Part shown: positions 27,660 through 64,000 of the stretch, piece by piece
How the letters are laid out: each line of letters starts with the position of its first letter
How positions within the stretch are numbered: the first letter of the stretch is position 1
From: Escherichia coli
GTDB lineage: Bacteria > Pseudomonadota > Gammaproteobacteria > Enterobacterales > Enterobacteriaceae
Assembly (NCBI RefSeq): GCF_050320075.1
Contig: NZ_CP190018.1
Strand: one strand, 5' to 3'
DNA: 64,000 bases
Notes under the pieces: generated by a model
The model's database searches: none
Seen by the model: only the letters and a program-made list of their open reading frames with translations
What the model was told of the DNA's origin: nothing
Program-made: the position numbers and the translations under genes

Positions 27660-27710
27660 TCTTTATAGTTATTTATTCACAGGAGTACCAGAGCGGTACT
27701 CCTGTTGGTT

Positions 27711-28481
27711 TTAATGATCGAGGACGATCAGGGGTGAATGGCTGGCAGGATCTTTAAGTACGGTAATATCCGCGCCGTAAAGCATGGTCAGCGCCTGCTG
27801 TGTCAATACGTCCTGTGGTTTACCATTTGCGATAACCTTTCCTTTTTGCATTAATACAACACGGTCTGCATAACGCGCGGCAAGATTTAGATCGTGCAAT
27901 ACGCAGCAAACATTGAACTGCCGTTCGTGAACTAGCTGGCGTAATAAACGAAACAAGTGCTGCTGATGGTGAATATCCAGCGCCGAAGTTGGTTCATCAA
28001 GAAATAACCATTTCGGTGAGGGAGTAGGTTCCCAGAGTTGCACCAGCAGGCGCGCTAATTGCACGCGCTGTTGTTCACCACCGGATAATTGCCGATAGTC
28101 ACGGTTTGCTAACGCCTGACAGTCACATAACGCCATTATTTGTGCTGTTTCATTATCCTGATTACCAGTGCGATGCGGATGCCGCCCCATCTGGATAACT
28201 TCTTGTACGCTGAATGGAAACGCCATGTGGCTATTTTGACGCATCACGGCCCGGTGTTTCGCCAGTTCAGTAATCGACCATTCATTTAATGGCTTATTAA
28301 ACAACCGACATTCGCCGCTATCAGGTTGAAGATAGCCGGTTAACTGGCGAAGCAGCGTAGATTTTCCCGCACCATTAGGGCCGAGAATGGCAACAATTTC
28401 CCCACCGGGAAAAGTCAGCGAGACATTGTCAGTCAGACGCCGCCCCTGAAGGCTATAAACCAGATTCTGGGCGCTGATCAT
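27711..28481 (-). CDS. chuV: Haemin ABC transporter ATP-binding protein
   Basis: Track ORF trimmed to [11 protein letters not shown]; Walker [10 protein letters not shown] and LSGGEQQRV signature; start overlaps the chuU stop (ATGA). Confidence 0.85.
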
Positions 28482-29470
28482 GTGATCCTCCGGTTGCGCA
28501 GAATCAACCACATAAAATAAGGACCGCCAAGCAGGCTGGTTAATAATCCCACGGGCATTTCTGCTGGCTGTACCAGCGTGCGGGCAAGCGTGTCTGCCAT
28601 CAGCAATAAACAGGCTCCGGCGAGGGCGGAGCAAGGGATTAGCCAGCGGTGATTTGCCCCGGTAGTCATACGAATCAGATGCGGGATCACCAGGCCAATA
28701 AAGCCGATAATGCCGCTTACCGATACGGCGGCACCAACGAGCAGTGAGCTAATCAACAGTAATTGTTGGCGTTTACGCTTTACGTTCACGCCGAGGTAAT
28801 GGGCTTCTTCATCACCAAGTTGCAGCAAATTCAGCGTTCCGGCGAGACACGTTGTTGCCATAATGGCGGGCAGAATGAAGGAACTGGCAACCAATAACGT
28901 TGGCCATTGCGCCTGACCGAGATTGCCCATCATCCACAACGTGAGTTGTCGTAGCTGTTGCTCATCGCCGATATAGCTCAGGATGCCGATCGCTGCGCCG
29001 CACAGGGCATTGATGGCGATACCGGCGAGTAACAATTGCATCATGCTGCCATCGCGATGGCGCTGCGTGATGAGAAAAATGATGGTACAGACCACTAAAC
29101 TTCCGGCGATGGCAAACACCATTTGCTCATAGAGCACCAGCACCACTGGGAAGGAGAAGGGCAGCACAATAGCAACGCCAACCATTAATGCAGAACCGCT
29201 ACTGACGCCAAGTAATCCTGGGTCAGCCATTGGGTTGCGAAAAAGCCCCTGCATAATTACCCCGGCGGTTGCCAACGCTGCACCTACCAGCACCGCCAGC
29301 AAAACCCGTGGTAGACGAATATTGAGCCAGATATCACGGTATTCCTCATCAAAAAGAGCATCAAAACTGATCCTTAACGCTCCCTGACTGGCACCGAACA
29401 GCACCAGAGCTAGCAATAATAGTGATAGCCCCATAAAGACCCTGGCGGAAGAGAGTGAATCCTTGAGCAC
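28478..29470 (-). CDS. chuU: Haemin ABC transporter permease
   Basis: 330-aa multi-TM FecCD-type permease; translationally coupled to chuV. Confidence 0.85.
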
Positions 29471-29518
29471 GCAAAACTCCGTTACGACATTACGGCGCGG
29501 ACATGCCGCGCCGGGGTA

Positions 29519-30142
29519 TCACGCCGGTTTCAGGTCCGGTTCAATCAGACTGTAGACCTGCTGGTTAAGTGCTGGCGCATTTGCCAGTTCATGGATATGT
29601 GCGGCGACATCGGCACGGTGAACAAAACCATGACACTCCTGATTTTGTATCCGTTGTGCTTTGCCCGTTGCCGCCCCATCAAGCAGACCGCCAGGGCGGA
29701 GAATGGCGTAATCAAGCTGGCTGGTTTGCAACCAGCTTTCCGCCAGCGTTTTTTCCCGTACCGCCTGACCAAACGCAGCCTTTGCCCGCTCCGATAAAAA
29801 CGGCCAGCTATCGCCACATCCCAAAGAGGTCACCAGAATCATGCGACTGATGCCGGCCTTTTCGGCCTCATCAATCACTGTTCTGTGTGCCAGATAATCC
29901 TGAGTTCCGCCCATTGTTGAGATGATAAGCGCATCCTGGCCAGCTGCGCGGCAAGCAGCCGCGACTACGCTGGCATCACAGGCGTCGCCTGTAAAAACCT
30001 GTACGCCTTGTTGCGCCAGTTTCGTGGCGGCATCAGCATGACGAACGACAGCAACGACCGGACGTTGTTCCGCCAGCGCCAGTTCAAGCGTTCTGGCACC
30101 CACACCTTTTCCGCCTGCGCCAAAGAGTAGCCACGGCGTCAT
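29519..30142 (-). CDS. chuY: Haem-utilisation protein ChuY (NAD(P)-binding, Rossmann-like)
   Basis: 207-aa ORF with N-terminal GxGxxG-like LFGAGGKGVG motif; position within the chu locus. Confidence 0.75.
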   Translation of the reverse strand: MTPWLLFGAGGKGVGARTLELALAEQRPVVAVVRHADAATKLAQQGVQVFTGDACDASVVAAACRAAGQDALIISTMGGTQDYLAHRTVIDEAEKAGISRMILVTSLGCGDSWPFLSERAKAAFGQAVREKTLAESWLQTSQLDYAILRPGGLLDGAATGKAQRIQNQECHGFVHRADVAAHIHELANAPALNQQVYSLIEPDLKPA

Positions 30143-62579: not shown

Positions 62580-62606
62580 ATTTATTTAATTAATCAGGAA
62601 ATTAAA

Positions 62607-62960
62607 ATGCGTAATTCACTTAAAGCCGTTTTATTTGGTGCCTTCTCTGTCATGTTTTCTGCCGGTCTTCATGCTGAAACACATCAGCATGGCGATATGA
62701 ATACTGCCAGTGATGCTTCGGTACAGCAAGTTATCAAGGGCACCGGTGTCGTTAAAGACATTGATATGAATACTAAGAAAATCACCATTTCGCATGAAGC
62801 AATTCCAGCGGTGGGCTGGCCTGCAATGACCATGCGCTTTACTTTTGTTAATGCAGACGATGCTATTAATGCCCTGAAAACAGGCAACCATGTCGATTTC
62901 TCGTTTATTCAGCAGGGCAATATCTCCTTACTCAAAAGCATTAACGTGACGCAGTCCTGA
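62607..62960 (+). CDS. silF: Periplasmic metallochaperone SilF (CusF-like)
   Basis: 117-aa ORF with signal peptide and Met/His/Trp metal site context (WPAMTMRF). Confidence 0.85.
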   Translation: MRNSLKAVLFGAFSVMFSAGLHAETHQHGDMNTASDASVQQVIKGTGVVKDIDMNTKKITISHEAIPAVGWPAMTMRFTFVNADDAINALKTGNHVDFSFIQQGNISLLKSINVTQS

Positions 62961-63073
62961 TTGGCTGTCCGGAGCGATTACATCCTGTGCGCCTGTACAT
63001 TCACATAGGTATATGTGTGAGTTAACCGTCAGGCGCATATGCCAGGTGTTTTGATTTTTTAGCGGAAAATTGT

Positions 63074-64000
63074 ATGGCTTCTTTAAAGATAAAATATGCT
63101 GCAATAATTATCAGCAGCCTCATAGCAGGGGGGCTGATATCGGTTACTGCCTGGCAGTATGTAAACTCAGCACAAAAGACAGAAAAAACAGAACAAAAGG
63201 CACCGGAACGAAAGGTGCTTTTCTGGTATGACCCAATGAAACCGGATACCAAATTTGATAAACCCGGAAAATCGCCCTTTATGGATATGGACCTGGTGCC
63301 AAAATATGCTGATGACAGTGGCGATAAAAGCAGTGGCGGGATCCGTATCGACCCAACCCAGGTTCAGAATCTGGGATTAAAAACGCAAAAAGTCACGCGA
63401 GGAATGCTGAATTATTCTCAGACAATCCCGGCTAATGTCAGCTATAACGAGTATCAGTTTGTTATTGTGCAGGCGCGTTCTGACGGGTTTGTCGAAAAAG
63501 TCTACCCCATGACGATTGGCGATCATGTGAAGAAGGGGACGCCACTTATCGATATTACCATTCCGGACTGGGTGGAAGCACAGAGTGAATTCCTTCTGTT
63601 ATCCAGCACCGGTGGTACTTCCACGCAAATTAAAGGCGTTCTGGAACGGCTTCGCCTGGCAGGTATGCCGGAAGAGGATATTCAGAGACTGCGTTCTACC
63701 CGGAGCATTCAGACCCGTTTTACCATTAAAGCACCTATTGATGGTGTCATTACTGCATTTGACCTGCGCACCGGCATGAATATTTCGAAAGATAAGGTGG
63801 TGGCTCAGATTCAGGGAATGGACCCGGTCTGGATCAGCGCTGCAGTGCCAGAATCTATCGCCTATCTGCTGAAAGATACGTCGCAGTTTGAAATTTCGGT
63901 ACCGGCTTATCCGGATAAAACATTCCATGTCGAAAAATGGAATATTCTTCCCAGCGTGGATCAGACAACCCGTACGCTTCAGGTCCGTCTCCAGGTTTCT
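63074..64000 (+). CDS. silB: RND membrane fusion protein SilB (CusB-like), 5' part; continues past the window end
   Basis: ATG at 63074 (MASLKIKYAAIIISSLIAGGLISVTAWQY..), open to the window end, so absent from the ORF track. Confidence 0.8.
   Translation, partial: MASLKIKYAAIIISSLIAGGLISVTAWQYVNSAQKTEKTEQKAPERKVLFWYDPMKPDTKFDKPGKSPFMDMDLVPKYADDSGDKSSGGIRIDPTQVQNLGLKTQKVTRGMLNYSQTIPANVSYNEYQFVIVQARSDGFVEKVYPMTIGDHVKKGTPLIDITIPDWVEAQSEFLLLSSTGGTSTQIKGVLERLRLAGMPEEDIQRLRSTRSIQTRFTIKAPIDGVITAFDLRTGMNISKDKVVAQIQGMDPVWISAAVPESIAYLLKDTSQFEISVPAYPDKTFHVEKWNILPSVDQTTRTLQVRLQVS

Follow-up and report, generated by a model that had tools for sequence, protein, structure and literature searches.

A stretch of 64,000 nucleotides from Escherichia coli (assembly GCF_050320075.1, contig NZ_CP190018.1), referred to here as the window, departs from the K-12 chromosome at three places between its positions 27,660 and 64,000: at a chu haem-uptake island, at a module of two genes for an ArsP-family permease and an ArsR/SmtB regulator, and at a Tn7-like island carrying sil and pco metal-resistance genes. 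The first-pass annotation, made from the sequence alone, described these blocks as three independent acquisitions in an otherwise conserved backbone, and the question raised by the locus is whether absence from K-12 can be read as acquisition in this way. We consider it very probable that the three segments have had three different histories, and the Tn7-like sil/pco island is the sole recent horizontal gain among them.

Whole-window BLASTN against K-12 MG1655 (3630000–3672000) gave a collinear alignment at 96–98% identity, save for three window-specific blocks. The first, 27663–36721 (9,059 bp), stands where K-12 has 38 bp separating the yhiD and dctR stop codons, and the second, 39750–41355 (1,606 bp), in place of 105 K-12 bp in the yhiS/arsC interval. 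At the third, K-12 homology ends at 55817, 15 bp short of the K-12 yhiN stop codon, and everything from 55818 onward is absent from K-12. K-12 has none of the three blocks, and the exact breakpoints bear out the statement of the first-pass annotation that they interrupt its gene order at different points; the gene identities given there were also right at family level, the genes being chuVUYXWT and chuAS, an ArsP_1 permease with an ArsR/SmtB regulator, and tnsA' with silESRCFB. The whole window was matched at 100% by the chromosome of YZLc1-3 (chicken faeces, China; NZ_CP123240.1 249871–313870) and by Ec-U3 (human urine, Burkina Faso). In the RefSeq annotation of the identical record, the gene order is dctA ... 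gadAXW-mdtFE-gadE-hdeDAB-yhiD, chuVUYXWT chuAS, dctR-slp-yhiS, then the permease and ArsR/SmtB genes, arsCBR-dinQ-gor-rlmJ-prlC-rsmJ-dtpB-uspAB-pitA-yhiN and tnsA'-IS1-copM-silESRCFB...

The direction of change could be read at the permease/regulator module, which comprises the following features.

39750–41355 (1,606 bp): segment absent from K-12, breakpoints from BLASTN.
40020–41021, minus strand: ArsP_1-family permease, 333 aa (Pfam PF03773).
41129–41425, plus strand: ArsR/SmtB regulator gene, 98 aa, divergent from the permease and mostly inside the K-12-absent segment.
41356–41425, plus strand: 3' end of the ArsR/SmtB gene, 21 codons and stop, with a counterpart kept in K-12, O157 and B2.

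K-12 (phylogroup A), an O157:H7 strain (E) and a B2 strain share one common "empty" allele with identical boundaries. This allele keeps an in-frame ArsR-like tail, namely the last 21 codons and the stop, at ~83% identity (MLDAIIGISRREYCVNSKIA versus MLEAIIEFLREECCVNSKIA, each followed by the stop); in K-12 the gene fossil lies at about 3650805–3650875 of NC_000913.3 and is ~70 nt long. An empty site that holds the tail of the missing gene marks the K-12-type allele as a deletion product, and the K-12 gene order at this point is thus the derived one, K-12 having lost the module and the window strain not having gained it. Compared directly, the K-12 arsC-yhiS region and that of the window share their flanks and the last 70 nt of the ArsR-like gene, and differ in the 105-bp filler of K-12 against 1,606 bp and in an IS5 within K-12 yhiS.

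Other Escherichia were covered by a dctR-centred scan with one genome per species, which gave six non-reference loci. E. whittamii has both genes intact, lying between arsC and slp; there the ArsR-like gene is 93% and the permease gene 89% identical to the window at nucleotide level, with flanks at 86–93%. In SCPM-O-B-8794, permease residues 183–333 alone remain, immediately after arsC, which is a second, different deletion. Within E. coli, the module was found in 2,221 of 5,426 complete genomes (~41%) at 94.5–100% identity. The window and 55989 copies are 95.6% identical, within the range of the neighbouring backbone genes, and this value does not suggest recent import. No mobility genes, repeats or tRNA were found at the module borders.

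The permease is a member of Pfam PF03773 (ArsP_1; 180.4 bits, cut-off 32.3) and carries the motif TPFCSCST at residues 66–73 as well as an extra loop with three CC pairs. For ArsP, a conserved pair of membrane cysteines within a TPFCSC-type motif has reportedly been described. The regulator was matched by NCBIfam NF033788 (HTH_metalloreg; 61.9 bits, cut-off 55) and by Pfam HTH_20/HTH_5, and has one cysteine at C73 and a C-terminal vicinal pair at C91-C92. The ArsP_1 family, the divergent regulator with its C-terminal vicinal cysteines and the ars neighbours are shared with the known ArsP methylarsenite efflux permease and its ArsR-type repressor; the three-CC loop is not, and the substrate could be another soft metal. 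Homologues of the pair at ~85% identity occupy 365 places on E. coli plasmids; on p3_W5-6 (locus 6334–8707) the next gene after the pair is arsH, which encodes an organoarsenical oxidase. The likely role is the regulated export of trivalent (organo)arsenicals, which the adjacency to arsRBC and, on the plasmid, to arsH supports and does not prove. On a further plasmid, pHS13-1-IncHI2 (locus 6301–7863), the pair sits amid IS26 and Tn3 fragments.

The chu/shu island was delimited from the RefSeq annotation and the K-12 breakpoints, with its flanks, as follows.

27012–27659, plus strand: yhiD, left flank, acid fitness island backbone (RefSeq); K-12 homology extends to 27662.
27663–36721 (9,059 bp): chu/shu island (O-island 140).
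27711–28481, minus strand: chuV.
28478–29470, minus strand: chuU.
29519–30142, minus strand: chuY.
30142–30636, minus strand: chuX.
30649–31986, minus strand: chuW.
32006–32920, minus strand: chuT.
33602–35584, plus strand: chuA.
35633–36661, plus strand: chuS.
36722–37252, minus strand: dctR (yhiF), right flank; K-12 homology restarts exactly at its stop codon.

All eight chu open reading frames are intact. The block holds the TonB-dependent receptor gene chuA, the haem oxygenase gene chuS, the ABC transporter genes chuTUV and chuWXY, sited between yhiD and dctR, and from its 96–99% identity to characterised loci we infer haem uptake and utilisation. It does not differ materially from the chu/shu locus of O157:H7 O-island 140 and the shu locus of Shigella dysenteriae: the eight genes, their order and the insertion point are all alike, identity is 97.5% to O157:H7 and 96.3% to B2 strains, and the window carries the phylogroup D/ST38 allele. 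Earlier work (PMC10540162) placed the locus within the acid fitness island, with yhiF (dctR) and yhiD as its neighbours, and a study with xenoGI (PMC5799925), whose reading agrees with the one given here, found it in that island in O157:H7 and E. albertii.

In E. coli, chu was present in 2,234 of the 5,426 complete genomes (41%), always on the chromosome and essentially as a single copy, at 96.2–100% identity and in identity classes that look like phylogroups. Its boundaries are the ends of two convergent flanking genes and are free of scars; no mobility gene, repeat or tRNA was found at them. Among the six non-reference loci, those of the E. albertii type strain, E69 and SCPM-O-B-8794 have chu in the same position, and those of E1V33 and E. 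whittamii lack it. In MOD1-EC7003, chuA-chuS alone are kept beside yhiD (locus 10591–14943), a partial deletion of the island, and in E. albertii, which has the full chu set, yhiD is missing and chuV abuts hdeB (locus 19560–19949). In every genome compared, chu had diverged from the window to a degree that matched the acid-fitness genes beside it (values are nucleotide identities to the window):

E. albertii: chu 87–92%, flanks 84–92%.
E69: chu 89–94%, flanks 85–90%.
O157: chu 95–99%, flanks 98–99%.

Such a match is the signature of long co-residence and not of recent transfer. Since E. albertii and other Escherichia species have chu in this position, with a divergence like that of its flanks, it is older than E. 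coli; it is ancient at the yhiD/dctR site and was not acquired by the window strain or its pathotype.

The Tn7-like island has a different record. Its features within the window are these.

54630–55853, plus strand: yhiN, the attachment-site gene, last codons replaced by transposon-end sequence; 407 aa versus 400 aa in K-12.
55818 to beyond the window end: Tn7-like island, absent from K-12.
55818–55900, plus strand: right (tnsA-proximal) end, terminus TGT; three repeats resembling TnsB sites, at 55827, 55847 and 55878.
55976–56596, plus strand: tnsA, 3' end cut by IS1 (Pfam Tn7_TnsA-like_N, E=7e-16; RefSeq pseudogene; 99.7% to R478).
56598–57365, minus strand: IS1, 768 bp, no 9-bp target duplication, marking a 9,213-bp loss.
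57365–57508, plus strand: remnant of an AAA/TOPRIM (OLD-like) ATPase gene, 144 nt.
57677–58027, minus strand: copM/DUF305.
58174–58605, minus strand: silE.
58850–60331, minus strand: silS.
60324–61004, minus strand: silR.
61194–62579, plus strand: silC.
62607–62960, plus strand: silF/cusF.
63074–64000, plus strand: silB, cut by the window end.

In the source genome, silA, silP and pcoABCDRSE follow beyond the window (RefSeq), so that silE, silS, silR, silC, silF, silB, silA and silP stand in canonical order. The island starts at 55818 with TGTCCGAGGACAATAAAGTTGTACA..., and its termini are of the Tn7 type (TGT...ACA with TnsB repeats): the right end reads TGTCCGAGG... with three repeats of the ACAATAAAGTTGTA type, and the left end, outside the window after pcoE and ISCro1, reads ...CTCTACACA. 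The same right terminus bounds the element of R478. The TnsA endonuclease gene lies beside one end, though truncated by IS1, and the genes for TnsB, TnsC and TnsD (TniQ) are missing from the window copy and present in the otherwise 99.7–99.9% identical elements of R478 and 55989.

The intact element of R478, a conjugative IncHI2A plasmid, consists of tnsA, tnsB, tnsC, a TnsD-family gene, two small open reading frames and the AAA/TOPRIM ATPase gene, followed by copM-sil-pco. Window and R478 are 99.74% identical over 55818–56597 and 99.93% over 57366–64000, and the 9,213 bp lost between these segments took the 3' part of tnsA, tnsB, tnsC, tnsD, the two small open reading frames and most of the ATPase gene. 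As its transposition genes are missing, the window copy is a decayed member of its family and unable to move by itself. Against the Tn7/sil/pco elements of pMG101 and R478, it is alike in the right end, the copM-silE-silSR-silCFBA-silP-pco order, the yhiN/yhiM target and the ATTGC duplication, and differs by the IS1 in place of 9.2 kb and by one extra A at the right junction. Among the matches listed, the IS1-deleted form was found only in YZLc1-3 and Ec-U3 (2/5,426 genomes). Past the left end in the source genome (locus 16485–21905, which also takes in ISCro1) lies a second IS1, by which both yhiM and a yhiJ-type gene have been cut short; the yhiL-type gene between them is gone, so that the flank of the element has also been hit by an IS1-associated deletion.

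Several observations date this island as recent. At least 54 genomes are 100.0% identical to window 33000–55817, with the match ending exactly there and the island absent; one of them, strain 746, has an ordinary empty yhiN-yhiM junction, and another, NMBU_W05E18, is an O86:H18 strain of sequence type 38 (ST38), phylogroup D (PMC7311804). Between the window and 55989, identity is 97.0% in the backbone and 99.93% in the island, and the sil segment is 99.9–100% identical to large IncHI2-type plasmids of Salmonella, Citrobacter, Klebsiella, Enterobacter and Serratia. Of the 5,426 complete E. coli genomes, 641 had the yhiN::element junction; the sil segment was present in 823 genomes, with 229 plasmid places. 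Transposition of the pMG101 Tn7/sil/pco element into the yhiN-yhiM interval has been observed in a laboratory strain (PMC8417528). That the insertion is independent of the one in 55989 is shown by the empty site of near-identical lineage mates.

The junctions themselves were also compared. At the yhiN 3' end of 55989, a perfect ATTGC duplication of 5 bp borders the element; in the source genome ATTGC is likewise duplicated and there is, relative to 55989, an extra A at 55817 (or a 6-bp duplication, ATTGCA), which shifts the fused YhiN tail to 407 aa rather than 400. This difference was rejected as proof of independent insertion: the two genomes do not differ at the left junction, and the A could have arisen later by mutation.

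The history that we prefer would run as follows. The chu island would be a long-standing, vertically inherited component of the acid fitness island, present between yhiD and dctR before E. coli and E. albertii split, and the chu-less arrangement of K-12 and of phylogroups A and B1 would be either an equally old alternative allele or a clean secondary loss. The permease/ArsR pair would be an old appendage of the chromosomal ars locus, of which the K-12-type allele is a deletion derivative. The Tn7-like sil/pco element, carried by conjugative IncHI2-type plasmids, would have been inserted at the attachment site at the yhiN 3' end by TnsABC with TnsD, and an IS1-associated deletion of 9.2 kb would afterwards have removed tnsB, tnsC and tnsD, truncated tnsA and fixed the metal-resistance cargo in place. 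Of the three independent acquisitions proposed at first pass, that of the sil/pco island stands; chu predates E. coli, and the module is a matter of deletion in K-12.

As a whole, this account makes the 36 kb, with good confidence, a normal K-12-collinear chromosome from the acid fitness island to yhiN in an ST38-type phylogroup D E. coli, a label that derives from regional identity to named ST38 genomes and not from multilocus sequence typing of the source genome. Further points also weigh against the account. Where chu is missing, in K-12/55989 and in E1V33/E. whittamii, short fillers occupy the same position and are ~65% alike over 38–41 nt; these are probably homologous, so the empty chu allele may be equally old, or even the original state. 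When the 38-bp filler of K-12 was sought inside chu-positive loci, only chance-level matches (≤14 nt) were found, and the junctions therefore cannot give the polarity of chu, gain or loss. Homologous recombination between lineages could move either allele and blur vertical inheritance. Both chu and the module have a lower third-position GC content (GC3) than core genes and were probably foreign at some earlier time, and the permease/ArsR pair scores under the cut-off of every NCBIfam equivalog.

The alternative that survives best is that presence and absence of chu and of the module form an old polymorphism, shuffled by homologous recombination in the conserved flanks, of which this strain happens to carry the occupied alleles. 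The chu site is known both occupied and empty in E. coli, as well as in at least two other Escherichia species, the boundaries fall at the ends of the flanking genes and bear no scars, and the module is found in B1 and D but not in A, E and B2, in conflict with the accepted phylogroup tree. According to PMC5799925, the distribution of chu requires either insertion followed by clean deletion or horizontal transfer with gene conversion, so that gene conversion is one option raised there. The flanks of the empty chu site in K-12, however, are ordinary E. coli (98–99% to the window) and not E. whittamii-like (85–87%), which means that there was no recent interspecies import. We regard this alternative as possible, if somewhat doubtful.

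Three separate horizontal insertions (chu, ArsP/ArsR and Tn7-sil) into a K-12-like ancestral backbone, in the ancestry of the strain or its pathotype, are much less probable. This reading draws on the lack of all three blocks in K-12 and on their independent distribution: K-12 has none, 55989 (B1) has the module and sil without chu, and O157 and the B2 strain have chu only, so that presence is uncorrelated among these strains. It also draws on composition, all three blocks lying below the GC3 of core genes:

Core genes: 0.61.
Acid fitness island: 0.54.
sil: 0.53.
chu: 0.52.
Permease/ArsR module: 0.485.
yhiS: 0.30.

The composition of all three blocks is thus slightly unusual, which is compatible with their having been foreign at some time. 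A composition scan was proposed with the first-pass annotation as a check; it found low GC3 in all three, yet the sharpest anomalies (gadE-hdeAB and yhiS) fall in segments shared with K-12, and composition gives no date for the events. Insertion of the module is already contradicted by the ArsR-like fossil in K-12; chu and the module lie at the same sites in other Escherichia with divergence like that of their flanks, and their borders are free of mobility genes, repeats and tRNA. That the mosaic is an assembly artefact or a chimera of the source genome can be dismissed as next to impossible and was rejected, as two complete genomes, sequenced independently and originating on different continents, agree at 100% across the region, IS1 junctions included.

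The remaining backbone holds two features next to the module that need description.

38217–39440, minus strand: yhiS, intact, 407 aa (GC 0.34, GC3 0.30); split by IS5 in K-12.
41548–43683, minus strand: canonical arsR-arsB-arsC operon, backbone; K-12 has arsRBC too.

Outside the three blocks, K-12 and the window differ only by the IS5 of K-12 yhiS and by an indel in the uspB-pitA interval. The yhiS gene is damaged elsewhere too, being frameshifted in 55989 and truncated in B2. No match to yhiS was found in Pfam or NCBIfam; a homologue was undetected at five of the six non-reference Escherichia loci, and the sixth (MOD1-EC7003) showed only 9% coverage at 74% identity. Upstream of dinQ, two similar segments of ~110 nt (43820–43933 and 44059–44167) match the K-12 agrA/agrB small-RNA genes, with cross-matches at 86–89% identity, in an arrangement that is normal backbone. 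The uspB-pitA interval is ~150 bp longer in K-12 than in the window (52857–52883); the extra sequence is of the repetitive extragenic palindromic (REP) type and also resembles window 6693–6821 and 41412–41516. No tRNA genes lie within the window, and integration linked to a tRNA was rejected on that ground.

The first-pass annotation had further associated the combination of traits with animal or clinical E. coli. At least six genomes carry all three blocks, a lower bound, and come from chicken or poultry (three), pigs (two) and human urine (one); the sources of the island-free ST38 lineage mates are mostly humans, dogs, gulls and water. The sil/pco genes are linked with livestock, and the hosts of the three-block genomes fit this anecdotally. 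The association is compatible with these hosts, though weak, chu being found in 41% of genomes and arsRBC in K-12 itself.

All three features are already in the literature or the RefSeq annotation, and what is mildly new is limited to the remnant of the ArsR gene in K-12 and to how old both chu-site alleles appear to be. Beyond correct annotation the significance is small, and the lesson is that absence from K-12 does not equal acquisition. The sil/pco island is of practical interest as a copper/silver co-selection marker in livestock-associated E. coli, and within a sub-clone of ST38, a lineage found worldwide, it has become fixed in the chromosome. Some 41% of complete E. coli genomes carry the ArsR/ArsP pair, which the reference strain lacks and which may be a neglected component of arsenic resistance in E. 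coli. It is tenable, if on the whole unlikely, that the occupied and empty alleles of the chu and arsR2-arsP sites both predate E. coli and have coexisted across Escherichia species through balancing selection or recurrent allelic replacement; if so, the well-studied arsRBC of K-12 would be what truncation has left of an ancestral locus of five genes, one that dealt with organoarsenicals as well.

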